Of a DNA stretch of 33,827 nucleotides, positions 258 through 33,595 are shown piece by piece (the stretch's first letter is position 1; the number at the start of each line of letters is the position of its first letter). This DNA is from a virus (lineage: Duplodnaviria; Heunggongvirae; Uroviricota; Caudoviricetes). The notes beneath the pieces are model-generated. The model did not search any database. It was given only the letters and a program-made list of their open reading frames with translations, and was not told where the DNA came from. The DNA lies in the IMG/VR virus record IMGVR_UViG_2758568661_000004, one strand, 5' to 3'. The translations under genes were made by a program, and so were the position numbers.

Positions 258-268
258 CATGCGCAGGA
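258..268 (-). promoter_or_regulatory. Class I motif TCCTGCGCATG
   Basis: Minus strand TCCTGCGCATG-GACAGCTT-ATG(249). Confidence 0.8.
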
Positions 269-274
269 ATGCGG

Positions 275-1804
275 TTATGACGCCGAAAGGTGATTGTCCA
301 GCCACGCCAGCGCGCCGGCTTCGTCGTCGAACTCACCGGCATCCTGAGCTTCCACAGCCGCTGTGATGATCGGCTTGAAGTCCGGTCCGGGCTTCATCCC
401 GCGAGCCATCAGATGCTGACCGCGGAGGATTGAGGTGCGCGGTTTGCCTCCGCCGTTCTCGTATTTGTCCAACCATTCAGCTGCCGGGGAGATTTTCGCA
501 CCGGCACCGCGACCGGCTTGGTCGGCGTCAACCACGGCAACCCATTCACGGAATGGAACATCCCCGAGGGCGCGGGCGAGCTTCCGGACGGAGTACGCGG
601 ACGGCTTCCCGCCTGAACCTGCGGTACGCATGTGGAGGGCGACGACTGTGCCGACCCATTCTGCAGTCTGGATTGGCGCGCCGATGGACAGCAGGAAGTC
701 ACGGGCGACAGGTCCGCCAGCTTCTGCATGACCATGGGAGGTGATGCGGCCGTCATCCGTGTGCTGAGTGTGGGTGTGCTTTCCGACGTCGTGGAGTAGC
801 GCCCCAAGGACAACACGTTCGCGGGCTTCGATGTCGAGTCCGTACCGGTCAGCGGAGGTGACAGCCTCATCGGCTGCCAACCCCAGGTGGGTGAACACGT
901 CACCTTCGGGGTGCCATGTCGGATCCTGTGCGACTCCGCGGGTGTTGTCCAACTCCGGGAACCAGGTGATCCAGCCGGTCTGCACGAGCACGTCGAGGCC
1001 TTTGGAGATGTTCTTACCCGCCCGGGCGAGCTTCCGGAACTCCTGCCATACCCGGTCCTTGGACAGGTCCGGGAACTCGGTGTGGATGGACGCGGCAAGC
1101 TCAGCTGTCTCCGGCGCCAACGTCATGTCGAAACGGGCGGCGAATTGCATAGCCCTGATTACCCGCAACGGGTCTTCGGAGAAAGCTTCGGTGGTGTGAC
1201 GGAGGATCTTCTGCTCGAGGTCGGCAATCCCGGCGTACGGGTCGACAAGCTCCCCTGCTGCCGGGTCGTATCCGATGGCGTTGACGGTGAAGTCGCGGCG
1301 ACCGAACGCTGCCACCTCATCCAAGGTCGGGTCCACAGTCACTTCAAAGCCGGTGTGCCCATCCCCTGTCTTCGAGTCGCGGCGCGGCAGGGACACGTCG
1401 AAGTCTTCCCCGTCGACGGCTAGTTTCAGCACCCCGAAGGACACACCGAACAGGTCGACGGAGGCAAGCTTGCCGAGCTCCTGGGCGAGTGAGTCGTACC
1501 CGTCGAGGCCGTGCACTTCGATGTCCACATCCTTCGGTTTGTGCTCCCCGGCGTTCAAAGCGTCGCGGACGGAACCGCCGACGATCAACGGGTTCCCGCC
1601 GGCGTCACGGCATGCTTGCAGGACACGTTCGGTTGCCGGTGACAGCGCCAGCAGCCCCGGTGCGGGGCAACGGTGCACGGCTGGACGTTCGCGTGTCTGG
1701 CCGCAGTTGGTGCAGGTCACATCGCCGAGGCTCAACGGTGCTCCTTGTTCGTACAGGTACTTCTTGTACTTACCGGTTTGATGGCGGGGAGGGTTCGATG
1801 TCAT
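275..1804 (-). CDS. cca: Class II tRNA nucleotidyltransferase (CCA-adding/poly(A) polymerase family) with HD domain
   Basis: VGGSVRD, DVDIE, loop PRRDSKTGDGHTGF, RRDFTVNA, EDPLRVIRAMQFAARF, HD region HPEGDVFTH...LLHDVGK; N-terminal CTNC...HRC. Confidence 0.9.
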   Translation of the reverse strand: MTSNPPRHQTGKYKKYLYEQGAPLSLGDVTCTNCGQTRERPAVHRCPAPGLLALSPATERVLQACRDAGGNPLIVGGSVRDALNAGEHKPKDVDIEVHGLDGYDSLAQELGKLASVDLFGVSFGVLKLAVDGEDFDVSLPRRDSKTGDGHTGFEVTVDPTLDEVAAFGRRDFTVNAIGYDPAAGELVDPYAGIADLEQKILRHTTEAFSEDPLRVIRAMQFAARFDMTLAPETAELAASIHTEFPDLSKDRVWQEFRKLARAGKNISKGLDVLVQTGWITWFPELDNTRGVAQDPTWHPEGDVFTHLGLAADEAVTSADRYGLDIEARERVVLGALLHDVGKHTHTQHTDDGRITSHGHAEAGGPVARDFLLSIGAPIQTAEWVGTVVALHMRTAGSGGKPSAYSVRKLARALGDVPFREWVAVVDADQAGRGAGAKISPAAEWLDKYENGGGKPRTSILRGQHLMARGMKPGPDFKPIITAAVEAQDAGEFDDEAGALAWLDNHLSAS

Positions 1805-1821
1805 GGAGTGTATGTGCGCGG

Positions 1822-2379
1822 CTAACCTGCGGCGGTCAGCTGCTCGGTCAGGGCGGTGTTCTGCTCGCGCAGCTCAGCGACGACATCCTCCAACTGCTTC
1901 TTGGCGGCGGACACGTTGGTGATGTGCGCTTGGGCTTGCGCGAGACGTTCACGCAGGTCAGCGTTCACCGCGCGTTGCTCATCCACCGCTATCCGCATGG
2001 TGGAGAGGGCTGGTGCGTCTGACCACGCCTCCTCACCGATGGAAGCGACCCGGGCAGCTGTCACGTCACCACTGACCGCGTCCTGCTGCCACCATCCCAG
2101 CTCGAGCATGATGTCCGCTGTGACAGCTTCACGTTTGGCGGTCAGCTGCGACCATTCGTCGTCGGAGAGGAAGCATTCCGGGTCGATGGAATGGCCGTAC
2201 TCGGCGTAGTCGCTGATGACAGCGTTGAGGGCTTCACTGGGGGTGTCGAACCTGGGGTCGCGGTCCCGGATGGTTGGGCTGAGGTCATCGGATGCGAACC
2301 CCATGACGGGTGAGAACTTGTTGTCGGCGGTGCGCCGCACCAGCCAGTAGTTGTCTGAGGACAGGGTGATGCCTTTCAT
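1822..2379 (-). CDS. Hypothetical protein with C-terminal coiled coil (~185 aa)
   Basis: Start trimmed to MKGITL (2379) to avoid overlap with the upstream gene; heptad-like tail LRERLAQAQAHITNVSAAKKQLEDVVAELRE. Confidence 0.65.
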   Translation of the reverse strand: MKGITLSSDNYWLVRRTADNKFSPVMGFASDDLSPTIRDRDPRFDTPSEALNAVISDYAEYGHSIDPECFLSDDEWSQLTAKREAVTADIMLELGWWQQDAVSGDVTAARVASIGEEAWSDAPALSTMRIAVDEQRAVNADLRERLAQAQAHITNVSAAKKQLEDVVAELREQNTALTEQLTAAG

Positions 2380-2423
2380 GTGGTCGAGCTGTTGGAAGAG
2401 TCCGGGAGTCCCGGCGGGTCGTC

Positions 2424-4235
2424 CTAGTTGAAGGATTTGTAGGCGGTGTACGGAACCGTCGTGGTGCTGGCGTCGAACACCAGGGTGGGGGTGTTCACGA
2501 CTGCTGTTGAGTTGGTTCCGGCCTGACCGTCCGTGTTCGCACCCCATGAGTAGAGGCGTCCCTTCCAGTCCACGCCGACGGCACCAGCTTCACCGACGTA
2601 CACATGGGCGAACTTCACCGTTGATGTGACGGTCTGCGGTGTGGATGCGTTCACGGAGGTACCGTTACCGAGCTGCCCTGACGTTCCCAGACCCCAGCAT
2701 TTGATTGCACGGTGGTTGTTGGTCATGCAGCTGAACCCGGTCGAGTACTGGAACTCAGCTTTCCCGTCGGAGGCGACCGTGGCGACGGTCGTGGCGTTGG
2801 TGCTGACGACGGTGCCGTTGCCGAGCTGCCCGGTGCTGTTCGCACCCCAGCACATCTGGCCGGCGTCGCTGTACATGCAGGCGGCGCCCCCGCGGACGGA
2901 GATTCCGGGGTTGGTGGTCATCGTGTACGCGGTGGTCTGCTGCTTGAGTGGGAACCCAGCCTTTCCCTGTGCGGTGCCGCCCTGCCCGACAACACTCGGG
3001 GTGCCGGACGGTCCTGCGCACCAGCCTTGGTTCGGTGTGGTTGTCAGGACGCACAGGTTGGTGGTGTCGAACGAACCAGCAGCAACGGTCAGGGTGCCGG
3101 ACATCAAGTTCGGTTGTGAGTATTTGAGACCAGTGCTCAGGGAACCCCAGCACCAGTACTGGTTGGCGGGGATCTGAGCGGGCACAGCGATGGTGACACC
3201 GCATGCAGCGTAGCTGGCTGCCGCTTTCGATCCGAAGACTTCCACGCTGGCGAATTTGGGGACGAACAGCGGGTCGGGTGCGATTCCTGCAGCCACAGCT
3301 GTCGGGGCGGTCTTGTCGATCTCGGTTGTGTCGCCGACCTGTCCTTTGTTGTTCAAGCCCCAGCAGTATGCGGTGCCGTCTGCTGCTACACCGCAGGTGG
3401 TGCCGCCGGACATGCTGAGGCTGCTGAACGCGTATCCGCCTGTGACGGCAGTCGGTTTGAGGATCGTGGTGGTTGCCGAGCCGACACCCAACTGCTGGGA
3501 GCCGTTCGGACCCCAGCACCATGCTGCACCGGTGTTGTCCAGCGCGCATGTGCCGCCCGCAGTGTTGTCGGTCTTGTCAACGACAACCTGGGTGAACGTG
3601 CGTCCCGCAGGCACATCTGACCGGTCCACTTTTGTTGGGACTGTCTTGCCGATGGCGGTGTTGTCGCCGAGCCCGTCTTTGCCCCAGCAGTAGATGTCGG
3701 CGCTGCTGTAGGAGATGGCGCAGCTGTGTGTCTCACCGATTGAGATGCCTTTTGACGTTTGGACGTTGAATCGTCGTTCAGTTGTCTTGGTTTCTGTCCT
3801 CCACATCGGTGCGCCGTCGGCGTTGTACCCGGTGATGTGCGTTCCAGTGGTCCCCACGTCGGCGCTGGACAGCTTCCGTGTGAACGTTTTGGTGTCTGCT
3901 TTGTAGGTGACGGTGATCGTGACGGTGCGCACTCCCGCTGCTTCCGGGGCGTTCACTGTGGTTGTGGTGTCGCCGTCGACAATCGGAGGGAGGGTGTCCG
4001 GTGGTGTGGTTCCTGCCGCAAGGGCGGCGTTCAGCTGGGATGTGTAGGCGGCGAACGCACCGTCGGCGGCTTGTGCTATCTGCTGGGATCGGTTGTTGGC
4101 GTCGTACCCGGACAGGGTGGTTGTGGATGCGGCCGCGAAGCCGATTGCCATGACCCCGGCCATGACGACGAAGGCGGCTGACGCCATCGTCGACCCTTTC
4201 TGGTCGCGTCGAAGGCGACGGAACAGGTTGCGCAT
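2424..4235 (-). CDS. Pilin-like N-terminus fused to RCC1/BLIP-II-type beta-propeller (putative tip adhesin)
   Basis: Basic leader RRLRRDQKG|STMAS followed by a hydrophobic helix; repeated CWGxNxxGQLGxG motifs; RBS AGGAG overlapping the upstream stop. Confidence 0.85.
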   Translation of the reverse strand: MRNLFRRLRRDQKGSTMASAAFVVMAGVMAIGFAAASTTTLSGYDANNRSQQIAQAADGAFAAYTSQLNAALAAGTTPPDTLPPIVDGDTTTTVNAPEAAGVRTVTITVTYKADTKTFTRKLSSADVGTTGTHITGYNADGAPMWRTETKTTERRFNVQTSKGISIGETHSCAISYSSADIYCWGKDGLGDNTAIGKTVPTKVDRSDVPAGRTFTQVVVDKTDNTAGGTCALDNTGAAWCWGPNGSQQLGVGSATTTILKPTAVTGGYAFSSLSMSGGTTCGVAADGTAYCWGLNNKGQVGDTTEIDKTAPTAVAAGIAPDPLFVPKFASVEVFGSKAAASYAACGVTIAVPAQIPANQYWCWGSLSTGLKYSQPNLMSGTLTVAAGSFDTTNLCVLTTTPNQGWCAGPSGTPSVVGQGGTAQGKAGFPLKQQTTAYTMTTNPGISVRGGAACMYSDAGQMCWGANSTGQLGNGTVVSTNATTVATVASDGKAEFQYSTGFSCMTNNHRAIKCWGLGTSGQLGNGTSVNASTPQTVTSTVKFAHVYVGEAGAVGVDWKGRLYSWGANTDGQAGTNSTAVVNTPTLVFDASTTTVPYTAYKSFN

Positions 4236-4248
4236 GTGTGGGTGTCTC

Positions 4249-4950
4249 CTAGTTCGGGTTGAACGCTGTTGAGCCGGACGGGGTGCCGTCCAGGACGTTC
4301 ATCCGGGATGCTGTCTGGGTGAATGAGGCGGAGCCTGTCGGTGCGGGAAGGCTGGCGCCGGTGGTTGTTGTGAGGGTGGCCTGCTTGATGGCTGTGCTGC
4401 CCCATTTGAGGTCGGTCACCCCGGCTGGTTGAGCGCCGGGAGTGGTCAATGTGAGGGTCGAGCCGCTACGGGTGAATGGGCGGCCGGCGATATTCGCGTA
4501 GGTGAACGTTTCCGCGTTCGCCACATCGGAGAGGACTTTCTCCTTGGCGGTTCCTGTTGTGGGGCCAGCGCATCCTGATGTGTTCGCGCCACCGGTGGCG
4601 TGCATCACTGTTGTGATGTACAGGCTCAACCGGGTGCTGTCCGCACTGACTTCCCAGATGTTCTGGACGCATTCGGGGCCGTTGACGATTGTGAAGGTGA
4701 CCTTCTTGTCGGCCGGGGTGATGATGGTTGCTTTGCTGACGTCGGAACGCCATCGGGACTCGGTGAAGGAGATTTCGGAGCGGGTGTTCGCTGCGGCGTC
4801 CACGCCGAGTTTCGCGTAGTTGAATGCGACCAAGGCTGCTGCGATGGTCGCCATGCAGAATGCGGAGATGAGGACGCCGACCAGGGTTTCCGGTAGGGAG
4901 AACCCGCGCTGGTCTGTGTGCAGCTTCCTGCGAAGTCGGGTGATCATCAT
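4249..4950 (-). CDS. Type IV prepilin-like protein (minor pilin)
   Basis: MMITRLRRKLHTDQRG|FSLPETLVGVLISAF: canonical G|FxxxE class III signal peptide; start overlaps the upstream stop (ATGA). The 395-aa ORF-track start is too far upstream. Confidence 0.85.
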   Translation of the reverse strand: MMITRLRRKLHTDQRGFSLPETLVGVLISAFCMATIAAALVAFNYAKLGVDAAANTRSEISFTESRWRSDVSKATIITPADKKVTFTIVNGPECVQNIWEVSADSTRLSLYITTVMHATGGANTSGCAGPTTGTAKEKVLSDVANAETFTYANIAGRPFTRSGSTLTLTTPGAQPAGVTDLKWGSTAIKQATLTTTTGASLPAPTGSASFTQTASRMNVLDGTPSGSTAFNPN

Positions 4951-5714
4951 GCCGCCTTGTAAATGTAGAACCGGGCGAGGTTGACGGTGCTTCCGACAAC
5001 ATGGACGGTGATGGCGGTGCCGGCTGGTGCGAACACGGAGCCGTAGGTGTATGTGTTGGTGGTCTCGTCGAACAGGATCGACTCGAGCACGGTTGCTCCG
5101 TTGCGGAACTCGATGGCTCCGACTCCGGCTGCTCCACTCACCTTCACCACGTACCGGACTTCCCCGGAACCAGTCGGGACAGTGAACGGTGTCGCACTGA
5201 TTTGTGACACCGGGACAGGTCCGCTTCCGGCTGCAGTCCCGATACCAGCGATCGACCATGTTCCGCCCACCGCTGTGGTCACGATTCCGGGGTCTGAGGT
5301 GGCGACGGTCACGCTGGCGGTGACGCAGGACTTCAGCCGGATGGCGGCGTCCTGGCAGTTCTTGTCGACGTTCTTCGGGATGGAGACGTTCACCTGCGTC
5401 GTGCCGGCGCTTGTTCCAGTTCCCACAACCAGCCACCGGGTGACGTTCACGCCTTGGTCGTTGGCTGTGATGGTCGTCGGCGCTGTCTGCGGCGTGGCGG
5501 TGATCTTTGTCGCGTCGTTCGGGTTCTCAGCGAGGTCGTTCGCGAGGTTCCTCGCGAACGTGTACCGGTCGGATTGGATAGTGGTGGACCGGACGATGTT
5601 CCCGGTGGTGGTGGAGACGCCGACAAGAGCGGTGACGGTGAGTGCGGTGATCACGATGCCGAGCATCGCGTCGATGAGCATTGAGCCGCGCTGGTTGGTG
5701 CGGAATTTCCTCAT
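4947..5714 (-). CDS. Type IV prepilin-like protein (minor pilin, D at +5)
   Basis: MRKFRTNQRG|SMLIDAMLGIVITALTV; RBS GGAAGGAG before the ATG at 5714. Confidence 0.8.
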   Translation of the reverse strand: MRKFRTNQRGSMLIDAMLGIVITALTVTALVGVSTTTGNIVRSTTIQSDRYTFARNLANDLAENPNDATKITATPQTAPTTITANDQGVNVTRWLVVGTGTSAGTTQVNVSIPKNVDKNCQDAAIRLKSCVTASVTVATSDPGIVTTAVGGTWSIAGIGTAAGSGPVPVSQISATPFTVPTGSGEVRYVVKVSGAAGVGAIEFRNGATVLESILFDETTNTYTYGSVFAPAGTAITVHVVGSTVNLARFYIYKAA

Positions 5715-5838
5715 ACCATCTCCTTCCTGTGGCTGATGTTCGGGGTGCAGGTTCCGGCGGTGAGCCGTGTTGTATCGACAGGTCACTATCGGCTGTTTTT
5801 GAGCAGCCGTCACCTGTCGGGTGGATGAGTTTGCGTGG

Positions 5839-5886
5839 ACAAGAGCGCAGCAGAGGCCAACCTTCAGGCCCCTGCTGCGCTCTTGT
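5839..5886 (-). terminator. Long inverted repeat, probable terminator
   Basis: ACAAGAGCGCAGCAG...CTGCTGCGCTCTTGT immediately after the stop of 5893..7431. Confidence 0.7.
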
Positions 5887-5892
5887 TTATGG

Positions 5893-7431
5893 CTACTTGG
5901 CGGCTCGTGCTGCGAGCTCGTCGAGGATCCGGCCGGCGAGTTCACGAAGCTGCGCGGGTGTCATCTCGGCGAGGTCGCCGTCCACCGCAACCGGGTCGGA
6001 GCCGTTGCCTTCTGCGGGCTTGGCACCGGTTCGGGTGACCTCGTCGCCGTTCTTGTCGTAGAGGATGGCGTCGCCGTCCTGGTCGATGACAGCGCGGTAC
6101 ACGACGTTCTGGGTCTGGCCGATTGACGCGACCCAGCTGCCGTCGTCACCGGGGACGATCTCGAAGATCTCCAACCCGGAAGCCCAGTCAGGCATCCACG
6201 AGTACTGCGATTCGATCTCCTGTGCGATGGAGGAGTTCGCGGAGCGGGTGTGCCCCTTGCCGTACTTGTAGACGTTGAGGGTGTTCAGCTTCCCGAACTC
6301 AGCCGTGGTCGCGTCGATGTTGGCGAGGGCGACGACCGAGGTGGAGGAGCCGCGAGGGGACAGCGGGGTGGCGTAGCCAGCGTCAGTGTCTCCGGTGTAG
6401 CGGAGGGTGAACTCGGAGCCGTTGTAGACGCCGGTGTCGTTGGCGTTCTCGAACCCGTTGCGGTTCTGCACGTGGTCCTCCCATGTGCCGACCTTGCCGT
6501 CCTTGGTGAGAGCGTCGAGTGCTTCACGCTGGAGCGCAGCGAGTGACTGCGGGTAGACGGGGCCGGGGATGTCGGAGGTGTCACGCTCGACGGTGACCTC
6601 ACCGGTCTTGCCGTTGTAGATGGCAGCTCCGTAGGCGGTCCACGTGGTGATCCAGAAGCCCTCATGAGCCTTCAACGGGATGACGATCTTGGGGGTGTCA
6701 CCGTCGCAGTAGCCGTACACGTCGTTGCTGTCCGAGGTGACGTTCGCGGGGGTCTTGGCGTCGATGAGCAGGTTGAGGTTCTCGTGGGGCAGCCATCCAC
6801 CCAGACGCTGCTCGGCGGTGTTCACATCGAAGTTGCAGTTCTCCACATTGGAGGCGTCAGCGGCACCGAACGTGGGGATGTCGATGACCTGAACGGACTC
6901 GTAGCCGACCATCCAGCCGTTGCGCTCGACGAGGGTGGTCCACAGGCCGGACTCGCCCTGGTCGATGACGACCTTGGAGTTCAGGCCGGTTCCGGTGGTG
7001 TCACCCATCAGCTTGTGGGATGAGGAGGCCGCCACGTCGTAGGGGGCGCGAGGCTCGTAGTCTGGCACCGGGTCGTTGACGACCTTGACCGAGGAAACGT
7101 ACTGAGCGTGGGTGTCAAAAGTTGACCTCACAGCCGTGACCACGGACAGCACCAGAAGCAGAAGCGCTCCGAGCACAGCGATAGTGCCGAGAGCGGCACC
7201 GGGTCCACTGTCCGACGAGAACGCGAACGCTGCAACGAGGATCAGGGCGATGATCGCTCCGGTGAAGATGAGCGTCGGGCCACTGGAGATGAAGATCTCT
7301 GCCCACATGTGGGCGAGGTTCGGACCCCACACCAGCCATGGCCACCCGAAGAATGCGACGGCGAGGATGGCGCCGATGACCCAGCCGGAGGCTGAGCCGC
7401 TGGAACGCGTGTTGTATGAGTTGTACGACAT
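5893..7431 (-). CDS. Membrane-anchored extracytoplasmic protein of unknown function
   Basis: Three N-terminal hydrophobic segments, then a large polar domain with a Cys pair; RBS AAGGGAG; class I motif upstream. Confidence 0.8.
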   Translation of the reverse strand: MSYNSYNTRSSGSASGWVIGAILAVAFFGWPWLVWGPNLAHMWAEIFISSGPTLIFTGAIIALILVAAFAFSSDSGPGAALGTIAVLGALLLLVLSVVTAVRSTFDTHAQYVSSVKVVNDPVPDYEPRAPYDVAASSSHKLMGDTTGTGLNSKVVIDQGESGLWTTLVERNGWMVGYESVQVIDIPTFGAADASNVENCNFDVNTAEQRLGGWLPHENLNLLIDAKTPANVTSDSNDVYGYCDGDTPKIVIPLKAHEGFWITTWTAYGAAIYNGKTGEVTVERDTSDIPGPVYPQSLAALQREALDALTKDGKVGTWEDHVQNRNGFENANDTGVYNGSEFTLRYTGDTDAGYATPLSPRGSSTSVVALANIDATTAEFGKLNTLNVYKYGKGHTRSANSSIAQEIESQYSWMPDWASGLEIFEIVPGDDGSWVASIGQTQNVVYRAVIDQDGDAILYDKNGDEVTRTGAKPAEGNGSDPVAVDGDLAEMTPAQLRELAGRILDELAARAAK

Positions 7432-7477
7432 GTAAGTGGGTTTCTCCCTTTCCGGAGGTTGTTCCTTCTGGGATGTA

Positions 7478-7488
7478 CATGCGCAGGA
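7478..7488 (-). promoter_or_regulatory. Class I motif TCCTGCGCATG
   Basis: TCCTGCGCATG-TACATCCC-A..., then a leader with an RBS to the ATG at 7431. Confidence 0.75.
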
Positions 7489-7495
7489 CGCAGAA

Positions 7496-7521
7496 ACGGC
7501 CGAGGGATGAGCCTCGGCCGT
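7496..7521 (-). terminator. Intrinsic terminator-like hairpin
   Basis: ACGGCCGAGG-6 nt-CCTCGGCCGT followed by TTCT on the minus strand, after gene 7543..8163. Confidence 0.7.
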
Positions 7522-7542
7522 GCACTGCTGGTCGTGAAGGGG

Positions 7543-8228: not shown

Positions 8229-8238
8229 CATGCGGCGA
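8229..8238 (-). promoter_or_regulatory. Class II motif TCGCCGCATG
   Basis: TCGCCGCATG-CCTTCCAG upstream of 7543..8163. Confidence 0.6.
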
Positions 8239-8887: not shown

Positions 8888-8916
8888 CATGCGGCAACAC
8901 CGGTGACCTGCGCATG
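8888..8916. promoter_or_regulatory. Back-to-back divergent motif pair: class II (-, 8888-8898) and class I (+, 8907-8916)
   Basis: catgcggcaac-accggtga-cctgcgcatg; each arm is followed by 8 nt and then ATG (8879 on -, 8925 on +). Confidence 0.75.
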
Positions 8917-8924: not shown

Positions 8925-9263
8925 ATGGAATCTTCTGCATCGGCCGGTACGTATCACCTGCACGCTGAGCAGGACGATGCCGTTGCGTATTGGAGCCAGG
9001 AGGCTGTGGCCAGTGAGAAGGCGTTCCGGAAGGCCCGATGGTCGTTCATCCCGGTGATGATGTTGGCAGCCGTGGTTGTTGGCACGGCGGCGCCGTCCAT
9101 GTTTCGTATGGGTGGCACCGCGGTGGCCGTGTTCGTTGCCGCTGAGGTGATTCTCGTTACCGGGTTCGTTACCGCTGAGGTGTTCCGGTTCCGCCGGCGG
9201 TCAGCGTGGAAGCGCCGAACCGCCTTGGCTGTGGAGTACCTGAGACGCGCTTACGCGCTGTAA
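8925..9263 (+). CDS. Small membrane protein (2 TM), probably leaderless
   Basis: ATG at 8925 is 8 nt after CCTGCGCATG; two hydrophobic segments and a basic tail. Confidence 0.7.
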   Translation: MESSASAGTYHLHAEQDDAVAYWSQEAVASEKAFRKARWSFIPVMMLAAVVVGTAAPSMFRMGGTAVAVFVAAEVILVTGFVTAEVFRFRRRSAWKRRTALAVEYLRRAYAL

Positions 9264-9688: not shown

Positions 9689-10186
9689 TTAAGCGACGAC
9701 GCGCATGACGTCGTAGATGTCGATGTCCCGCTCCTGCAACCGTTCACGGACGAGGAGTGCAAGCCTTCTGTTGTTCAGGAACAGGTCCGTCCACTGGGTG
9801 CGGACAGCGTCAACATCGTCGCTTCCGATCAGGGTGTCGAACTCATCGGCCTTCTCGCTGATCGCCGACTCGTTGGTCTCGTCGACAGTCTCGTTGTGAA
9901 CGTCCATCGCCCGGTTCCACACCCGGATGCAGGTGGGGCAGGCAACACCGATCGGGGTGGGCATCGGCTCGGTGGATGTGCTCCCGACGTGCCGGCCGCA
10001 CAGTGATACCGGCTGGAAGAAGCCGAAAGCGATGTGGCGGGTGAACGCGCCGGCAGCCCAGACGGGGCTGGTGAGGCCGTCGGCGAGCTTCTTCGCGATG
10101 AGGGAGTCGGCGTCCCTTCGGACCGTCCCCATCTTCCACAGTGGGGCGATACGCCGTCCGGGTCTGATGTTCGCGTTCGAGGTCAT
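9689..10186 (-). CDS. Hypothetical protein with H...C...CxxC putative zinc-binding motif, probably leaderless
   Basis: ATG at 10186 (MTSNANIRPG) is 8 nt after the class I motif; RHIAFG...SLCG...ACPTC. Confidence 0.7.
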   Translation of the reverse strand: MTSNANIRPGRRIAPLWKMGTVRRDADSLIAKKLADGLTSPVWAAGAFTRHIAFGFFQPVSLCGRHVGSTSTEPMPTPIGVACPTCIRVWNRAMDVHNETVDETNESAISEKADEFDTLIGSDDVDAVRTQWTDLFLNNRRLALLVRERLQERDIDIYDVMRVVA

Positions 10187-10194: not shown

Positions 10195-10205
10195 CATGCG
10201 CAGGA
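10195..10205 (-). promoter_or_regulatory. Class I motif TCCTGCGCATG
   Basis: TCCTGCGCATG-GAACAGTC-ATG(10186). Confidence 0.8.
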
Positions 10206-11289: not shown

Positions 11290-11299
11290 TATGCGGTCC
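11290..11299 (-). promoter_or_regulatory. Degenerate class II motif GGACCGCATA
   Basis: GGACCGCATA-GTGTCCCG, then RBS AGGAGG and the ATG at 11264. Confidence 0.4.
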
Positions 11300-11832: not shown

Positions 11833-11843
11833 CATGCGCAGGA
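11833..11843 (-). promoter_or_regulatory. Class I motif TCCTGCGCATG
   Basis: TCCTGCGCATG-ACAGTGGT-G..., then a leader with a hairpin and RBS to the ATG at 11783. Confidence 0.75.
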
Positions 11844-14587: not shown

Positions 14588-14597
14588 CATGCGGCAG
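14588..14597 (-). promoter_or_regulatory. Class II motif CTGCCGCATG
   Basis: CTGCCGCATG-TCTTACAG, then RBS GGAG and the ATG at 14558. Confidence 0.6.
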
Positions 14598-20229: not shown

Positions 20230-20240
20230 CATGCGCAGGA
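20230..20240 (-). promoter_or_regulatory. Class I motif TCCTGCGCATG
   Basis: TCCTGCGCATG-ACCTCAGT-G..., 50-nt leader to the ATG at 20171. Confidence 0.75.
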
Positions 20241-20309
20241 TCGACGGAACGCCTCGGCGAACGGCGTGTTCAGCGAGGCGTTCCTGTCGGGTTTGCGCTA
20301 GCCGCGGGC

Positions 20310-22169: not shown

Positions 22170-22179
22170 TATGCGGCGA
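22170..22179 (-). promoter_or_regulatory. Class II motif TCGCCGCATA
   Basis: TCGCCGCATA-CCTGTACG upstream of the TTG at 22130. Confidence 0.55.
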
Positions 22180-22198: not shown

Positions 22199-22231
22199 AA
22201 GAAGCCCCACCGGTTCACGGCAGGGCTTCTT
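22199..22231 (-). terminator. Intrinsic terminator
   Basis: AAGAAGCCC...GGGCTTCTT followed on the minus strand by TGCATTTT. Confidence 0.7.
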
Positions 22232-22602: not shown

Positions 22603-22653
22603 GTGGCAATCCTTTCAGATGGGTGCCGCACGATGCGGCTTCTTCACCAGCCT

Positions 22654-22681
22654 CATGCGCAGGATGTGACCCTGCCGCATG
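22654..22681. promoter_or_regulatory. Back-to-back divergent motif pair: class I (-, 22654-22664) and class II (+, 22672-22681)
   Basis: catgcgcagga-tgtgacc-ctgccgcatg between the divergent genes 22602(-) and 22692(+). Confidence 0.75.
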
Positions 22682-23387: not shown

Positions 23388-25262
23388 CTACTCGGCGTTC
23401 ACCTTGCGGCGGCGAACCACCGTCAGCACCATGCCGGCGAGCATGAGCACAGCTGCGAACATGGCGAACGGTGCGCTCTCGAAACCGAGGGCCGGGATGA
23501 CCGGGTTTCCGTCAGCGGGGATGGCCGGGTTTCTGTCAGCCGGGATGGTCAACGATGCGACCGTCACCTCGTTTCCGTTCTCGTCGACATACACGATGTG
23601 GTGGTCACCGGCAGGAGCGGATGCGGGAATCCGCACCGTCACGTCGATGACACCGTTCTCGTCAGCGGTGAACTCGCCGAGGTCGATCGGGTCGGAGTGT
23701 AGGACCATGTGGATCACAGTGTAGGGAAATAGGCCGATGAGTCGGATCCGGATCGAGATGGAGCCGTCATCGTTCACTGAGTATTCTTCGACCGGGTACA
23801 TGACCGCACCGGTGAGTTGGACTTCGTCGTAGCCGTTGCCGTTCTGAGCGACGATGAAGGCGGTGAACACCTGACCCTTCTTGGTCGGGGTGCCGGAGAT
23901 GATGCCGGTGGTGGCGTTAAACGTGACCCCGTCCGGCAGGCCGCCGCCGGAGATCTTCCAGTTAACCTGCTGGTCGGCGGTCAGCTGGAACGAGAACGCC
24001 TTGCCTTCAAGGAGCTCGGGGAGCGCACCGCTGGTGATGCGGGGGCCGGCGGCGGCGACCGAACCGGTGAACGTCACCGTGTCGATGCCGTTGGCGTTCT
24101 CAGCGGACACCGAGAACGTGTAGCTCTCCACCGCGGTCGGAGTGCCGGAGAGGACACCAGTGTTGTAGTTGAAGTGCAGACCGATGGGCAGAACGCCGGC
24201 GGAGTGCGACCATTCGACATCCTGGTCGGCAGCGAACGTGTACGTGAATGCCTTGCCGACCTTGAAGTCGAAGTGGGTGGCGGTGGACGTGATGGTGGGT
24301 GCAGCCTCACCGGATGCGACCGTGCCGTTGAACGACTTGATGTTCTGACCGAAGCCATCGACAACCTTGACGGCGAACACGAAGTCGCCGGACTTCGTGG
24401 GGGTGCCGGTGAGAGCGCCGGTTGCCGAGTTCAGGTGGACACCGGCGGGCAGGCTGCCTTCGATGACCGACCAACGGAAGTCACCGGTGCGGTCGGTGCC
24501 GAACGTGAAGTTGACGGACTCGCCGGCGGTGAACGACGGAAGTTGGGTGGTGGTGATTGCCGGGGCGGCGGGGTTCACGTGGATGGTGAACGTGTGGGGG
24601 CTGCGGCTGACTTCGTCCGGTCCGATCGCCACCAGGGTGAACGTGTAGTCACCCGCCCTGGTCGGGGTGCCGTGGATGGAACTCCGCTCAACATCGAGGG
24701 TGAAGCCGGGCGGGAAGTCGAAACCACCGTTGATCGGGTCGATCGACATGGCACCGCCCCATTGCGTCGCTTCGAGCTGGAAGTTGTACGGGGAGCCGAC
24801 GGTTCCGGACGGTGCCGTGAGGGAGATCCACACCGGGTGGTAGTCGGGTGGAACGACCTTGGTGATGGTGCCGGTGAACGTCTGGTCGGACGTCCCCTCA
24901 GCACCGTCGGAGGCGGTGACTGTGAACGCGTACGCGCCGGGGGCGTCGGCGACGGTTCCGGTGAGGTGACCGGTGCCGTCGACGTTCAGGCCGAGATCTT
25001 CGACGCTCGCGTCAGCAGCCGCATAGGAGACAGCGTTCATCGCCATCAGCTGCACGTCAACACTGTCGCCGACTGTCAGGTCTCCGACAGCGTCAGGCTG
25101 GGACATCCACATGATGCCGGTGCCGCCGCCGGGGCCGCCGCCGGGGCCGCCGGGGATGTCACCGGGGCCGTAAGCCATCGCGGGTGTGGCCGCGAACATG
25201 GTTGTCGCCGCTATGGCCGCGACGGTGATGGCGGCGCCTGTGCGGCGGCCGAAAGTCGTCAT
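23388..25262 (-). CDS. Putative Ig-repeat cell-surface protein with sortase-like C-terminal signal (IPALG)
   Basis: Signal peptide MTTFGRR...PAMA; repeated xLPxGxxxNxxTGxxSGTPT; VIPALG + TM + RRRK; RBS AAAGGA. Confidence 0.85.
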   Translation of the reverse strand: MTTFGRRTGAAITVAAIAATTMFAATPAMAYGPGDIPGGPGGGPGGGTGIMWMSQPDAVGDLTVGDSVDVQLMAMNAVSYAAADASVEDLGLNVDGTGHLTGTVADAPGAYAFTVTASDGAEGTSDQTFTGTITKVVPPDYHPVWISLTAPSGTVGSPYNFQLEATQWGGAMSIDPINGGFDFPPGFTLDVERSSIHGTPTRAGDYTFTLVAIGPDEVSRSPHTFTIHVNPAAPAITTTQLPSFTAGESVNFTFGTDRTGDFRWSVIEGSLPAGVHLNSATGALTGTPTKSGDFVFAVKVVDGFGQNIKSFNGTVASGEAAPTITSTATHFDFKVGKAFTYTFAADQDVEWSHSAGVLPIGLHFNYNTGVLSGTPTAVESYTFSVSAENANGIDTVTFTGSVAAAGPRITSGALPELLEGKAFSFQLTADQQVNWKISGGGLPDGVTFNATTGIISGTPTKKGQVFTAFIVAQNGNGYDEVQLTGAVMYPVEEYSVNDDGSISIRIRLIGLFPYTVIHMVLHSDPIDLGEFTADENGVIDVTVRIPASAPAGDHHIVYVDENGNEVTVASLTIPADRNPAIPADGNPVIPALGFESAPFAMFAAVLMLAGMVLTVVRRRKVNAE

Positions 25263-25335
25263 TCTCAAGAGGATCCTTTCAAGACCGGTCAAAGATGTTG
25301 CCGGCGCATGGGTGGATGCTCCTGGCACCCGGAAA

Positions 25336-25362
25336 GCCCCGCCAGCGTGATGCTGACGGGGC
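25336..25362 (-). terminator. Intrinsic terminator-like hairpin between the two Ig genes
   Basis: Minus strand GCCCCGTCAGC-ATCAC-GCTGGCGGGGC-TTTC. Confidence 0.65.
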
Positions 25363-25391
25363 GTCCCATTGATGCTGCTTAGGTGTGCGGC

Positions 25392-27500
25392 TTAGGCGGC
25401 TGCGACCTTGCGGCGGCGGACCATGAGGGCTGCACCGCCGAGGAGCATCAGAGCGGCAACACCGAAGTACGGCGCACCCTCGAAGCCGAGGCCGGGGATG
25501 ACAGCGGTGCTGTCACCGGCTGCGGCGACTGTGATCTCGGAGATGAGGTACTCGACACCGTTCTCATCCACGAAGTACAGGTGGTGCGTGCCGGCGGGGG
25601 TGTTCAGGGGAATCTTCACACTGGCCACGACCTTGCCGTTGGAGTCAGCAGTGAACGAACCGAGGGTGACCGGGTTGGAACGCAGGACAACGGTGACGTC
25701 CGAATCGGGCGAGAAGCCGCTTCCGCTGACGGTGATCGTTGTGCCGGCGACCACGGTCCCGTTGTTCGTCCCTCCGGGCTGGTCGACGACCACGTTGCTC
25801 GGCTTCACAATCCCTTCGAAGTCCTTCGACACGGAACCCTCGTCGTTGAACGCGGTGACAGTGACCTCGTACTTGCCGTCATACTCCGGCGTCCCGGACA
25901 GGAGGCCGGACTTGCTCAGGGTGATGCCGGCGGGCAGGTAGCCGGAGCTGACCTCCCACTTGACGTCCTGGTCTGCGGTCAGCTGGTACGAGTACACGGC
26001 ACCCTGCGTCATCTCGGGGAGCGTCGCGGAGGTGATCGTCGGGTTGTTCTCGCCGACAACGTAACGCTGGACGGTGCCGATGTAGTGCTGCTCGTCGGTG
26101 TCCTCGGTGCGGTTCTGCGAACCGACGATCGCGAAGTCGTAGTAGCCGTCGTAAGCCTCGTCACCGTACTCAACGGTTCCGGACAGTGTTGCCGTGTCGC
26201 GGTTGAAGGTCAGGCCTGCGGGCAGGGTGCCGTCCGCGTCCCAGAAGTCCACGTTGGTGCCGGTGAACTTGTGGTTGATCTTCTGTCCGACCACCAGGTT
26301 GCCGAGGTTGTACTCGTCGACGACCGGGAGGCCAGCCTTGACGTTGATCTGGAATCCGTTGAACGGCGAGTCCTCACCGAACTGGTAGCGGGAGTTCGCG
26401 GCGGACACCTTGAAGTTGAAGGTTCCAGCCTCCGTGGGGGTGCCGCTGACGACGCCCATGCCGCCGTCGGAGGTGAACTCCAGACCGTCAGGCAGGTCGC
26501 CCGACTCCTGAAGCTCGTCAGCGTTGTTGGTGACGATGTAGGAGGAGAACTCCTCGCCGACACGGGCGGTGCCGTGGAACTCCTCCTGAGCGCCAGCGAA
26601 GTTCGGCAGACCACGCAGTGCCTCACCGTAGAACGTCTGGGTGTAGTCCTCACCGTCGACCGTGGCGATCAGGGTGATGCCCCAGCCGCCGTACGTGTCG
26701 AAGACACCGTCGAGGTAGAAGTCGCCGTCCTCGTTGACGATGGACAGACCATACGTGTTCGAGTCCTCGTCGAAGCGGATGGCAGTCGCACCGGGAACGT
26801 CGAGCTGCTGGTGGACCTGCAGGTCCTGCTCCCAACCTTCGAGGTCCTCCTGCGTGGTCACCCACGGGCTGTCCACGACGACGTCGTTGATGTGAAGGTT
26901 GAAGACCTGGTCTGCCGTGGAGTCATCCGAACCGACGGCCGTCACGGTGAACGTGAAGTCGCCCGACTCGGTGGGGGTGCCGGAGATGTGGTCTGCCTCA
27001 ACGACGAGTCCAGCCGGGACGCCCTCGCCAACCGTGTAGGACACGGCGTTCGGGACGTTGAAGCCGACGTAGTACTCGGAGCCGACGGTGCCATCAGCGA
27101 GGGTGTCGGTGTTCCACACGGGGGTGATGTCGGCAGCGAGGAGGGCGCCGGTGAACGTCTGCGTGGCGGTGACATCCGAAGAGCTGACGGCGTTCACGCC
27201 GAAGGAGTACTCGCCGGGGGTGCCGGTGACGTAACCGGTGAGGAGGCCGTCGCTGCTCACATCCAGACCGAGCTCCTCGGCGGCAGCATCCGCTGCGTTG
27301 AACGATACGGCGTCGTCGGCTTCCAGCTGGCGGCTGACCTCGTCACCGATTGTCAGGTCGCCGAGCAGGTCAGGCTCTGAAACCCAGACCGGGGTGAGCG
27401 GGCCAGCCATCGCGGGCGATGCCGCGAAAGCTGTGGCGGCGATGACAGCCGCGGTGACGAGCGACGCGCTGACGCGCCTGCCCAAGTTGGTGGTACTCAT
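25392..27500 (-). CDS. Putative Ig-repeat cell-surface protein with sortase-like C-terminal signal (IPGLG)
   Basis: Signal peptide MSTTNLGRR...PAMA; Ig-like repeats; VIPGLG + TM + RRRK; RBS AAAGGA; paralog of the downstream gene. Confidence 0.85.
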   Translation of the reverse strand: MSTTNLGRRVSASLVTAAVIAATAFAASPAMAGPLTPVWVSEPDLLGDLTIGDEVSRQLEADDAVSFNAADAAAEELGLDVSSDGLLTGYVTGTPGEYSFGVNAVSSSDVTATQTFTGALLAADITPVWNTDTLADGTVGSEYYVGFNVPNAVSYTVGEGVPAGLVVEADHISGTPTESGDFTFTVTAVGSDDSTADQVFNLHINDVVVDSPWVTTQEDLEGWEQDLQVHQQLDVPGATAIRFDEDSNTYGLSIVNEDGDFYLDGVFDTYGGWGITLIATVDGEDYTQTFYGEALRGLPNFAGAQEEFHGTARVGEEFSSYIVTNNADELQESGDLPDGLEFTSDGGMGVVSGTPTEAGTFNFKVSAANSRYQFGEDSPFNGFQINVKAGLPVVDEYNLGNLVVGQKINHKFTGTNVDFWDADGTLPAGLTFNRDTATLSGTVEYGDEAYDGYYDFAIVGSQNRTEDTDEQHYIGTVQRYVVGENNPTITSATLPEMTQGAVYSYQLTADQDVKWEVSSGYLPAGITLSKSGLLSGTPEYDGKYEVTVTAFNDEGSVSKDFEGIVKPSNVVVDQPGGTNNGTVVAGTTITVSGSGFSPDSDVTVVLRSNPVTLGSFTADSNGKVVASVKIPLNTPAGTHHLYFVDENGVEYLISEITVAAAGDSTAVIPGLGFEGAPYFGVAALMLLGGAALMVRRRKVAAA

Positions 27501-27624
27501 ACTGAAGGGTGGTCCTTTCGAAGATGAGCCGGCTGCGTATTGCATCCGGATAGTGCGTCTTTGCGGCGTTGTCGCCATCAACTACATGCGCGGCAGCACG
27601 CAATGCGTGGCTCTGCATTTTTCC

Positions 27625-27635
27625 CATGCGCAGGA
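27625..27635 (-). promoter_or_regulatory. Class I motif TCCTGCGCATG
   Basis: TCCTGCGCATG-GGAAAAAT-G... upstream of 25392..27500. Confidence 0.75.
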
Positions 27636-27640
27636 ATGAC

Positions 27641-27748
27641 GAAAGCCGCACCAAGAATCTGATGCGGCTTTCCTCTGATGTGTGCACACGCTATTGCCGG
27701 TGTCGCTATCTGGCATTCCCCCACACGGCAACGAATGCCAGATGCGAC
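27641..27748 (-). terminator. Two tandem hairpins after the UvrD-like gene
   Basis: GAAAGCCGCA...TGCGGCTTTC (27641-27672) and GTCGC-T-ATCTGGCATTC...GAATGCCAGAT-GCGAC (27702-27748). Confidence 0.6.
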
Positions 27749-29438: not shown

Positions 29439-29449
29439 CATGCGCAGGA
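29439..29449 (-). promoter_or_regulatory. Class I motif TCCTGCGCATG
   Basis: TCCTGCGCATG-GAGCAGGC-ATG(29430); directly abuts the stop codon of the J-domain gene. Confidence 0.8.
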
Positions 29450-31238: not shown

Positions 31239-31296
31239 CATGCGGCGAACTAAGAACCCGCGCCATCAGCTCACAAAGGGCGTGTTCCTGCGCATG
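31239..31296. promoter_or_regulatory. Divergent motif pair: class II (-, 31239-31248) and class I (+, 31286-31296)
   Basis: Minus strand TCGCCGCATG-TCTTCCCG; plus strand TCCTGCGCATG-TACAGGAC-ATG(31305). Confidence 0.75.
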
Positions 31297-31304: not shown

Positions 31305-32183
31305 ATGCCCCATGTCCCCGACCCCTCGACGACCTTTGCTGCAGCTTCTGAGCCGGCTGACGGCCGCATCTTCAATCAGATGAGCCGCTGGCTGCTTTGG
31401 CCGGTCGCGCTCACCGTCGTCGTCATCATCGTCTACTCGTTCATCATCTCGTTCCAGTCCCAGGTGGACTTGGCTGTGGCAGCACGCATCCGCCCGGAGG
31501 TTGCCTACGGATGGCCGATCATCGTGGACGGGACGATCATCGTCTCGACGTTCGCGGCGTTCATCCTGCAGCCCCGCGGATTCCGCGTGACTTGGTACCC
31601 GTGGCTGAATTTGATTCTGGGCGGGAGCCTGTCCATATGGGCCAACGGTTCCCACGCCACGAACGCCACCCCCACCGTGTGGGAGATGTTCATTGTCGGT
31701 GCGGTCCCACCGGCCGCGTTGCTCCTGTCCACCCACATGCTGATCATCATGCTTGGCCACAAGCCGACGGTTGTGGCACCCGTAGCGGTTCCGGCCGCAG
31801 CAGTGCCCGCCGCAACCCCGGCCGCCGGCCCAGCCGCGCGCCCGGTCGTCGAAGCGGTCATCGACCGCCCGACCCCACCCGTGGAGGTTGACCAGCCTGC
31901 AATCCTGCATGCCGTCCCCTCCCCTGTCCCATCGCTCGAGCCGGCACACCGGCCGCAGGTGAGTGACACCCCCGCACCAACCCGAACCACCCGTGAACCG
32001 AAAAATCCCACAGCGACGTCCGTCGTGTCACGGTTGACCCGCGCTCAGGCGGCGGACAGGATCCGCGACCTGCTCGCATCAGGGTCAACCGTCACCGCAG
32101 AAGAGGTCGGCGAGTGGATGGGTTCAACAGCAGCACGAGGCCAGGTCGTCATCGACCAGGTCAACCAGGAGGGAGCAGCATGA
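31305..32183 (+). CDS. DUF2637-like membrane protein with Pro/Ala-rich linker and possible C-terminal HTH, probably leaderless
   Basis: 4 TM including WPIIVDGTIIV and ANGSHA; ATG 8 nt after the class I motif. Confidence 0.7.
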   Translation: MPHVPDPSTTFAAASEPADGRIFNQMSRWLLWPVALTVVVIIVYSFIISFQSQVDLAVAARIRPEVAYGWPIIVDGTIIVSTFAAFILQPRGFRVTWYPWLNLILGGSLSIWANGSHATNATPTVWEMFIVGAVPPAALLLSTHMLIIMLGHKPTVVAPVAVPAAAVPAATPAAGPAARPVVEAVIDRPTPPVEVDQPAILHAVPSPVPSLEPAHRPQVSDTPAPTRTTREPKNPTATSVVSRLTRAQAADRIRDLLASGSTVTAEEVGEWMGSTAARGQVVIDQVNQEGAA

Positions 32184-33198: not shown

Positions 33199-33214
33199 CC
33201 GGACAGGCTAAATG

Positions 33215-33242
33215 GAAAAGGCACCCCGCGGGGTGCCTTTTC
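33215..33242. terminator. Bidirectional terminator (perfect 28-bp palindrome)
   Basis: GAAAAGGCACCCCGCGGGGTGCCTTTTC between convergent genes. Confidence 0.85.
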
Positions 33243-33262
33243 TGTTCCCGGTGCTGGCCGGG

Positions 33263-33577
33263 TTAGTCGATCTTGTCGGCGTTGAAGTAGTCACCGATCT
33301 TGTACTGCTCGTAGGTGTCCTCGTCGACGTACGAGTACCCGTTCAGCTCTCCCTGTCGGAGGGTGAACTTCCACCGGTCAGCGACGGTGTGCTCGACCGT
33401 TTCCTTCTGTGCGCAGCCGGCTCCCTGGTTGGGGCTGTCCACGCACTCCTCGGTGGAGTACGTGTAGTGCTTCTCGAACTCCTTCGAGGTGATCGTGCCG
33501 TAGTCGATGGGGGCGCAGCCGGCGAGGACGAGGACAGCTGTGGCTGCGGCGGTGAGGGTGGCGAGGATTCTCTTCAT
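33263..33577 (-). CDS. Small putative lipoprotein (104 aa), probably leaderless
   Basis: MKRILATLTAAATAVLVLAG|C lipobox; ATG 8 nt after the class I motif. Confidence 0.8.
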   Translation of the reverse strand: MKRILATLTAAATAVLVLAGCAPIDYGTITSKEFEKHYTYSTEECVDSPNQGAGCAQKETVEHTVADRWKFTLRQGELNGYSYVDEDTYEQYKIGDYFNADKID

Positions 33578-33585
33578 GTCACTCT

Positions 33586-33595
33586 CATGCGCAGG
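33586..33595 (-). promoter_or_regulatory. Class I motif CCTGCGCATG
   Basis: ACCTGCGCATG-AGAGTGAC-ATG(33577). Confidence 0.8.

Follow-up and report, generated by a model that had tools for sequence, protein, structure and literature searches.

The 33,827-nucleotide (nt) stretch of DNA analyzed here (hereinafter, the window), which is deposited as the IMG/VR virus record IMGVR_UViG_2758568661_000004, encodes a UvrD-type helicase, a 1570-amino acid (aa) methylase-helicase, proteins with He_PIG and RCC1 repeats, a DUF2637 protein, a DnaJ-domain protein, a nucleotidyltransferase of the CCA-adding type, small secreted proteins, and proteins without a predicted function. The gene map was compiled from open frames, third-position G+C content, Pfam matches, and gene calls on a public contig of the same DNA; searches of Pfam, PHROGs, and NCBIfam yielded no match for most of the small proteins. 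A previous annotation made from the letters alone (hereinafter, the sequence-only reading) singled out a 10-bp word, CCTGCGCATG (hereinafter, the class I word), as a candidate promoter that is specific for a mobile element and controls unrelated cargo. The genes served are indeed unrelated, and include those for the helicase, the methylase-helicase, repeat proteins, DUF2637, a neighbor of the DnaJ-domain protein, small secreted proteins, and unknowns.

A pattern search returns exactly the 11 copies that had been listed, on the same strands, and the original rough estimate of about 0.1 copies expected by chance is close to the number obtained from shuffled sequences (0.13 +/- 0.37 in 100 dinucleotide shuffles, with a maximum of 2). 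All 11 copies are confined, as stated in the sequence-only reading, to the non-coding sequence, which makes up 7.8% of the window (P ~6e-13), and they take up 11 of its 25 intergenic gaps. Each copy is co-oriented with the next gene, and the frames that follow have third-position G+C values of 0.73-0.89 in all 11 cases. The word is rigid: words with up to two mismatches total 67 in the window compared to 49.6 expected by chance, and only two of these have a single mismatch, both located inside genes and none in the gaps. The only sequencing run that holds this DNA includes a public 16.6-kb contig that reaches 4.9 kb beyond the window and contains three extra copies with the same features. When these flanking copies are included, the base preceding the word is T or A in 14 of the 14 cases.

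The distance between the word and the gene follows one of two patterns. In six of the 11 copies, an ATG is found after exactly 8 nt and opens a long frame with high third-position G+C content but without a ribosome-binding site; in the remaining five, the same position is occupied by a purine and is followed by a gene with its own leader, so that the gene starts either 0 nt (six sites) or 35-50 nt (five sites) after the predicted transcription start (+1). Ribosome-binding sites had been described as clear in four of these five leaders, which is a fair description of those downstream of the copies at 7478, 11833, and 22654, but the site is weaker at 20230 and unclear at 27625. As originally noticed, the eighth base after the word is C or T and the ninth is A or G in all 11 copies, whereas the rest of the 8-nt spacer is unconserved. 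In the extended set of 14 copies, a pyrimidine occupies position -1 in 13 cases and a purine occupies position +1 in all 14, with an ATG at +1 and no ribosome-binding site in eight.

Examination of the surrounding sequence reveals additional features that are relevant to transcription. Four of the 11 class I copies (7478, 20230, 27625, and 33586) lie within a few bases of strong, G+C-rich upstream hairpins with folding energies between -23 and -33 kcal/mol (z-scores of -3.7 to -7.0 against shuffled sequences), three of which have U-rich tails. These hairpins were detected by direct folding of the upstream regions, having been missed by a terminator criterion that relies on T-runs. A hairpin followed by the word is the layout of a terminator placed before a new promoter. 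Furthermore, a second, related word (G-CCGCAT-G/A; hereinafter, class II) is found in seven gaps, and three class I copies are located back to back with oppositely pointing class II words, 11-41 bp apart, at divergent junctions. The two classes together mark 15 of the 25 gaps; those with neither word are mostly short gaps inside operons or convergent junctions. A consensus scan detected no sigma-70-type promoters in the window, with 1.6-2.2 expected per half, a result that alone is not significant.

Another contig from the run that contains the window (59.6 kb; Logan contig SRR7126390_24, 1-17057) carries four more class I copies along with class II words, and beside them a full flagellar gene cluster that includes a gene for a FliA-type sigma factor. 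The presence of both words on this contig implies that the element carries plasmid-borne flagellar genes, like its relatives in Curtobacterium and Leifsonia. This run is listed at just 5 million letters, and yet contigs of 16-60 kb assemble from it; this may fit a sequenced isolated element rather than a whole bacterium.

No near-identical DNA was found in plasmid or phage collections. A search started with the helicase protein, however, identifies relatives at graded distances, namely a 701-kb contig of Leifsonia sp. Leaf264 (71% identity of the helicases), a metagenome contig (58%), a 448-kb contig of Agromyces sp. (49%), and the circular Curtobacterium plasmids pS16, D40, and pCPAA3 (546-608 kb; 41-47%). 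The order of the genes around the helicase (DUF2637, conserved unknown, DnaJ, helicase) is kept in these relatives; the conserved unknown, a 213-aa neighbor of DUF2637, shows no DNA-binding features. Scans of genome and viral contigs with the UvrD alignment retrieved only distant relatives, with at most 38% identity, which lack the motif. The only mention of these plasmids found in the literature describes pCPAA3 as a giant plasmid with polymerase III subunits (PMC8929003), and no description was found of the motif or of promoters on these plasmids.

The exact word of the window is used by none of these relatives (there are 0 copies in pS16), and all of them possess a variant at the same place and in the same register. 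Compared to the pair CCTGCGCATG (class I) and GCCGCATG (class II) of the window, the metagenome contig and Agromyces use CCGCGCATG and GCCGCATG, Leaf264 uses CCGCACATG (128 copies) along with 71 copies of CCGCGCATG in class I and GCCACATG (156 copies) in class II, and the Curtobacterium plasmids use CCGCGCATA(G) and GCCGCATA, respectively. Each Curtobacterium plasmid has 56-86 words with ATG or GTG at the fixed spacing, compared to 9-14 for the reversed control. The substitutions run in parallel in the two classes: in the Leaf264 lineage, the base before CATG changed from G to A in both, and in the Curtobacterium lineage, the last G changed to A in both. Such paired changes speak in favor of a single reader that recognizes a core common to the two classes and co-evolves with its sites, which track it. 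The palindrome TGCGCA that is contained in CCTGCGCATG is lost in the Leaf264 variant. A restriction or methylation site, based on either the TGCGCA or the CATG palindrome, was also considered and rejected given that the copies are intergenic and locked in orientation and that the palindromes are not kept in relatives.

Leaf264 provides a direct view of the genomic distribution of these words. Of the 81 copies of TCCGCACATG in the 4.5-Mb genome, 78 are located on the 701-kb contig, whereas the remaining 3.8 Mb contain 3, which corresponds to a roughly 140-fold higher density on this contig than elsewhere; the reversed control occurs twice. The exact word of the window followed by the start signature (CCTGCGCATG + N7-YATG) occurs only 12 times in total in 401 sampled Micrococcales genomes (~1.4 Gb), with no more than 3 copies per genome, compared to 6 in the 34-kb window alone; the bare CCTGCGCATG is present in 12 copies in one 2.2-Mb genome. 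The label "element-specific" is supported directly in the relative Leaf264 only (78 of 81 copies on the plasmid-like contig) and indirectly, through the sampled genomes, for CCTGCGCATG itself. The crude gene caller applied to Leaf264 over-extends the 5' ends of genes; its coding/non-coding split, which accordingly gives no more than a minimum, was left out of the evidence.

The start-site signature is reproduced on the Leaf264 contig with larger numbers. Start codons downstream of class I words peak at spacer 8 (53 sites against a background of 1-5), and those downstream of class II words peak at spacer 10 (55 sites); larger class I counts at spacers 3 and 6 represent GTG within a conserved GGTG block and are not start codons. 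Among the exact class I sites without a start codon at +1, this position is a purine in 46 of 47 cases (P 3e-13), usually followed by A, A. As this preference for a purine does not depend on a start codon, the position stands out in its own right, as would fit the start of transcription but not a signal for translation. The window with its flank and Leaf264 thus both display what is generally seen at promoters, a pyrimidine-purine start at a fixed distance that is independent of the start codon. Two further features of the Leaf264 sites are a weak GCAAAA-like box (-33 to -28; 58-80%) and the GGTG block at -6 to -3; neither is clearly seen in the 14 copies of the element that contains the window.

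The individual class I and class II words of the window and the associated hairpins are listed in the table. Past the class I copy at 27625 there is one additional class-I-like word, GCCGCGCATG, which may represent either a relic or a second promoter in tandem.

Table. Class I words, class II words, and terminator-like hairpins in the window
Feature	Coordinates	Strand	Context
class I	258..267	-	predicted +1 at 249, the A of a leaderless ATG; gene runs off the start of the window
class I	7478..7487	-	predicted +1 at 7469 (A); 38-nt leader with GGGAG, then 512-aa gene 5893-7431
hairpin, G+C-rich, U-rich tail, terminator-like	7490..7528	-	-26.1 kcal/mol, z -4.6; directly upstream of class I 7478
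class II (G-CCGCATG)	8229..8235	-	gap before 206-aa gene
class II	8888..8894	-	ATG after 8 nt; 195-aa gene
class I	8907..8916	+	predicted +1 at 8925, leaderless ATG, 112-aa gene; back to back with class II 8888-8894(-), 12 bp away
class I	10195..10204	-	predicted +1 at 10186, leaderless ATG, 165-aa gene
class II (CCGCATA)	11290..11296	-	before 167-aa gene
class I	11833..11842	-	predicted +1 at 11824 (G, then AAAGAA); 41-nt leader with GAGGAG, then 73-aa gene
class II	14588..14594	-	before S8 peptidase gene
class I	20230..20239	-	predicted +1 at 20221 (G); 50-nt leader, then 1570-aa methylase-helicase gene 15459-20171
strong hairpin, terminator-like	20242..20289	-	-33.4 kcal/mol, z -7.0; directly upstream of class I 20230
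class II (CCGCATA)	22170..22176	-	before RCC1 repeat gene; preceded by terminator-like hairpin 22199-22231 with 14-bp stem
class I	22654..22663	-	predicted +1 at 22645 (G, then AAGAA); 43-nt leader, 115-aa gene; back to back with class II 22675-22681(+), 11 bp away
class II	22675..22681	+	ATG after 10 nt; HAD-type hydrolase gene on + strand
class-I-like word GCCGCGCATG	27585-27594	-	31 bp downstream of class I 27625; spelling of Agromyces and metagenome relatives
class I	27625..27634	-	predicted +1 at 27616 (G); heads He_PIG repeat protein gene
strong hairpin, U-rich tail, terminator-like	27638..27675	-	-28.2 kcal/mol, z -6.3; directly upstream of class I 27625
class I	29439..29448	-	predicted +1 at 29430, leaderless ATG of UvrD-type helicase; word starts 1 nt past TGA of DnaJ gene
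class II	31239..31245	-	before conserved 213-aa gene adjoining DUF2637
class I	31287..31296	+	predicted +1 at 31305, leaderless ATG of DUF2637 gene; divergent from class II 31239-31245(-)
class I	33586..33595	-	predicted +1 at 33577, leaderless ATG; 104-aa protein with signal-peptide-like N-terminus
hairpin then UUUU, terminator-like	33612..33649	-	-23.3 kcal/mol, z -3.7; directly upstream of class I 33586

The anatomy of the word does not match the housekeeping, extended -10, ECF, or sigma-28 types of promoters. The sequence-only reading had called it a "-10-type element"; the invariant A at -11 and T at -10 are compatible with this designation, but position -7 lacks a T and conservation continues upstream as far as -19. 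The accompanying statement that the word is not the housekeeping TANNNT is accurate, given that positions -12 to -7 read CATGNN and T is never present at -7 in the 11 window copies; across 78 Leaf264 sites, the composition of this position is A25 C14 G21 T18. No column between -50 and -20 exceeds 71% in the 14 sites, so that a -35 element was not detected, and the TG that could be taken for a TGn extension at -15/-14 is located at -16/-15, one base off. Leaderless promoters of actinobacteria are read by the housekeeping sigma factor and contain TANNNT 6-7 nt before the start codon. The class I sites resemble these promoters in that the predicted start of transcription falls on the first base (A or G) of the start codon, with one upstream element at a fixed short distance and an A at -11, but differ from them by the lack of T at -12 and -7, by conservation that reaches 7 nt further upstream, and by being nearly absent from the Leaf264 chromosome.

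Promoters of the extracytoplasmic function (ECF) sigma factors consist of an AAC-type -35 box and a short CGT-type -10 box at a spacing of 16-17 bp. In the window copies, no conserved -35 box is present, and only the weak GCAAAA-like box is found in Leaf264. The promoters of sigma-28/FliA/WhiG have the form TAAA-N15-GCCGATAA. The words resemble these in that the -10 element is likewise long and G+C-rich, the first four bases of the class II word (GCCGCATG or GCCGCATA) are those of GCCGATAA, and a FliA-type sigma factor is encoded on every element of the family. Nevertheless, the words of both classes differ from GCCGATAA, the TAAA box is not conserved, and the flagellar clusters contain separate CCGATA(A) boxes. 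The stoperators of Cluster A mycobacteriophages, asymmetric words of about 13 bp, are also repeated tens of times in intergenic regions in one orientation. Stoperators, however, act with a known repressor and display neither a start-site signature nor a fixed distance to start codons, whereas the words described here keep a fixed register, and no conserved repressor candidate was found on the elements.

The closest mechanistic parallel appears to be the late promoters of phage T4, in which a single extended word in the -10 region, TATAAATA, suffices without a -35 box, and an element-encoded, divergent sigma-like protein, gp55, directs the host core polymerase to many copies of this word. In contrast to T4, the present system involves a plasmid of an actinobacterial host, its G+C-rich word occupies a more distant upstream position (-19 to -9), the two word classes differ in their register, and no gp55-, gp33- or clamp-type gene was identified. 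Among plasmids, a comparable case is SigN (ZpdN) of pBS32 from Bacillus subtilis, the promoters of which are conventional two-box ones and few in number; the present replicons, by contrast, contain several hundred copies each of a word without a -35 box, and no sigma factor was identified as its reader. SigN is the closest plasmid parallel by virtue of being a plasmid-encoded sigma factor (PMC6751061), and its promoters are plasmid-borne as well (PMC6751061, PMC10601692).

The sequence-only reading proposed that the motif is read by a sigma factor, RNA polymerase, or activator encoded by the element. The polymerase part of this proposal finds no counterpart in the searches of the related plasmids. 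The catalytic domain of the beta-prime subunit had no match on the three Curtobacterium plasmids (the controls were positive), and no DFDGD-type motif was found in the long frames of the Leaf264 contig or in the examined DNA of this element; a T7-type polymerase had no match either, a weak result since the control also gave none. Genes of the sigma family, on the other hand, are present on the elements, including this one, but none is tied to the motif. A FliA-type sigma factor is encoded in the plasmid-borne flagellar cluster of every element; in Leaf264 and in this element, a class II word lies upstream of its gene. These plasmid-encoded proteins share 50-57% identity with FliA proteins of other Microbacteriaceae that are encoded on contigs of more than 3 Mb, presumably chromosomes, and accordingly look orthodox. 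Judged by the published sigma-28 consensus, the CCGATA(A) boxes in the flagellar clusters look like the -10 type of this sigma factor itself, so that FliA probably reads those boxes and not the plasmid-wide words.

Apart from FliA, the Curtobacterium plasmids encode only one sigma factor, an ECF protein in D40; the chromosome of Leaf264 encodes many. Contig 5 of Leaf264 encodes two sigma-like paralogs found only on the plasmid (356510-357109(-) and 475962-476735(-); 200 and 258 aa, 30% identical), which contain a clear sigma region 4 and an N-terminal half that is not recognized by Pfam, and align over their full length to solved structures of ECF sigma factors. A word-based search started with the Leaf264 orphan sigma matched only itself, and an exhaustive profile search places the paralogs in the broad ECF-type family without a close ortholog; the three best small matches of the profile search, when looked up, came from other samples. 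A third member, about 28% identical, is encoded on another motif-bearing contig. The 300-400 nt upstream of the two Leaf264 genes contain neither word, which is unusual for this replicon. This pair may represent attractive but unproven candidate readers for the two promoter classes. A LuxR/GerE protein of pS16 that is conserved in the three Curtobacterium plasmids was rejected as the common reader given its absence from the Leaf264 contig and from the 56 kb of this element that were searched.

Taken together, these observations are best compatible with the possibility that a single family of giant (0.5-0.7 Mb), plasmid-like elements in Microbacteriaceae has a private promoter class, of which TCCTGCGCATG forms the core. 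The central idea of the sequence-only reading, a promoter of a mobile element from which transcription would start 9 nt past the final G, is supported by the anatomy of the sites and by their counterparts in relatives. A block spanning -19 to -9 would act with no need for a recognizable -35 box or TANNNT hexamer and would set the start at the purine located 9 nt after the last G of the word; where this purine is the A of an ATG, the mRNA would be leaderless, and elsewhere it would have a leader of 35-50 nt with a ribosome-binding site. Class II (GCCGCATG, with the start about 11 nt downstream) would serve other genes, such that the two classes would head most operons of the element. The host core RNA polymerase would read both with the help of an element-borne specificity factor, for which a divergent protein of the sigma family that recognizes the shared (G/A)CAT(G/A) core is the most likely candidate; this factor would have co-evolved with hundreds of sites per plasmid. 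It is very probable that the word acts as a promoter of a plasmid family, with transcription beginning 9 nt downstream of it, and is almost absent from a host chromosome; that the reader is encoded by the element appears moderately probable. The complete scheme, with a promoter class that is private to the giant plasmid family and read via an element-carried factor, is considered likely.

Several points weigh against this scheme. The searches of the element and its relatives did not identify a reader; the only sigma factor common to all five elements is an ordinary FliA-type protein, and the CCGATA(A) boxes argue against FliA in this role; and no ortholog of the Leaf264 orphan sigma factors was detected on the Curtobacterium plasmids or in 56 kb of this element. 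All start sites are predicted from sequence patterns, as the sequencing runs listed for the window and for the UvrD region of Leaf264 included none of RNA, and the plasmid specificity of the exact CCTGCGCATG would follow from the distribution in the relative Leaf264 and in the sampled genomes. Finally, a rigid word of 10-11 bp is more typical of an operator or of a phage polymerase promoter than of the -10 elements of sigma factors.

If the reader is not encoded by the element, the promoters could be read by a recruited alternative sigma factor or another factor of the host. The lack of a conserved plasmid-borne reader, with only the FliA-type and the single ECF sigma factor of D40 on the Curtobacterium plasmids, and the abundance of sigma factors on the Leaf264 chromosome are compatible with this possibility, and the differences in spelling track the host genus, which fits host and plasmid readers equally well. 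However, a recruited host factor would have almost no chromosomal regulon, given that only 3 of the 81 Leaf264 copies lie in the 3.8 Mb outside the plasmid contig, and both the G and the A spellings are kept on one Leaf264 replicon; we regard this explanation as unlikely. The rigidity that is atypical of a sigma factor site could also point to an element-encoded RNA polymerase, either of the single-subunit phage type or a divergent multisubunit one as in jumbo phages, because a rigid promoter that spans about 11 bp and lacks a -35 box is reminiscent of those read by phage polymerases and the elements are very large, with many genes for replication and nucleotide metabolism. Among the rivals, this is the one to which we assign the smallest probability, a marginal one, in view of the negative beta-prime results for the three Curtobacterium plasmids and the lack of the DFDGD motif in the Leaf264 contig and in this element; the negative T7-type search is a weak point here because its control failed as well.

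The same rigidity, along with the absence of single-mismatch copies in the gaps and the intergenic location locked to the direction of transcription, would be expected of binding sites for a repressor or another DNA-binding protein of the element, which would cover housekeeping promoters in the manner of stoperators, and a conserved LuxR/GerE-type protein is encoded on the three Curtobacterium plasmids. Yet such sites hardly account for the exact register to start codons (spacer 8 or 10 over hundreds of sites) or for the -1 pyrimidine/+1 purine rule at sites with no start codon in this position; no adjoining TANNNT or -35 box that the housekeeping sigma factor could use is present, homologs of the LuxR-type protein were found neither on the Leaf264 plasmid nor in the examined DNA of this element, and the TGCGCA palindrome is lost in the Leaf264 variant. 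This explanation therefore seems quite improbable. A signal that acts at the RNA level, namely a site for a sequence-specific endoribonuclease by which polycistronic transcripts are cut 8-9 nt downstream to produce leaderless mRNAs, or a translation signal comparable to the start-associated sequences of Cluster K mycobacteriophages, would account for the fixed distance to start codons that lack a ribosome-binding site and for the many copies between co-directional genes. It is, however, very improbable because copies also head divergent genes, where there is no upstream transcript, four are located directly past terminator-like hairpins, and five copies in the window lie 35-50 nt ahead of genes with their own ribosome-binding sites; moreover, the word has neither Shine-Dalgarno character nor a conserved fold.

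Some additional observations concern the gene content of these elements. The nucleotidyltransferase encoded at 275-1804(-) is a 509-aa protein of the CCA-adding/poly(A) polymerase family with an HD domain. The large predicted surface proteins (2424-5945(-), 20310-22130(-), and 23388-27581(-)) comprise RCC1-propeller proteins and two proteins with He_PIG Ig-repeats; their genes are all headed by class I or class II words, and a pilin-like N-terminal methylation motif is found near one of the RCC1-propeller proteins. ARAGORN predicts one tRNA-Arg(gcg) at 31759-31832(-), antisense within the DUF2637 gene, which may be a false call. On Leaf264 contig 5, a run of about 16 C, possibly a slippage-prone tract, separates a class II word from the ribosome-binding site of a 177-aa gene (~1120-1180 of the helicase-locus stretch). 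The plasmids pS16 and D40 carry nrdHIEF and genes for thymidylate synthase, SbcCD, a 1700-aa FtsK/SpoIIIE protein, and ArdC, a set for DNA metabolism that is very chromosome-like or phage-like for replicons typed as non-mobilizable.

The new aspects of this analysis are the genome-wide specificity in Leaf264, the set of spelling variants over five lineages with parallel base changes, the start-site statistics, the link between the words and a contig with flagellar genes and FliA, and the orphan sigma-like pair. At its broadest, the hypothesis would hold that plasmids of 0.5-0.7 Mb run nearly all of their ~700 genes from two compact promoter classes, with several hundred sites per replicon, that lack a -35 box and are invisible to the housekeeping sigma factor, via a fast-evolving factor that changes base by base along with all its sites and for which the orphan ECF-like paralogs of Leaf264 would be the prototype. 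Such a plasmid would represent a transcriptionally insulated second genome, with one plasmid gene as the master switch; we put this forward tentatively, as a generalization that is perhaps somewhat less likely to hold than to fail. Plasmids of this kind are common among Curtobacterium, Leifsonia, and Agromyces that live on leaves or in soil, and their cargo includes genes for flagella, for nucleotide metabolism, and for many surface proteins. If the proposed scheme is correct, these giant plasmids would carry their own transcription code, which would explain both how hundreds of foreign genes are switched jointly and how they remain silent or insulated in a new host. In practical terms, the words would serve as a sequence tag to find and delimit such elements in draft genomes and metagenomes and would improve the annotation of start codons for many leaderless genes, and a rigid, short promoter without a -35 box could become an orthogonal expression part for actinobacteria, given its factor. 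The parallel base changes in the two promoter classes provide a natural experiment that could show how a reader and its hundreds of sites evolve together.

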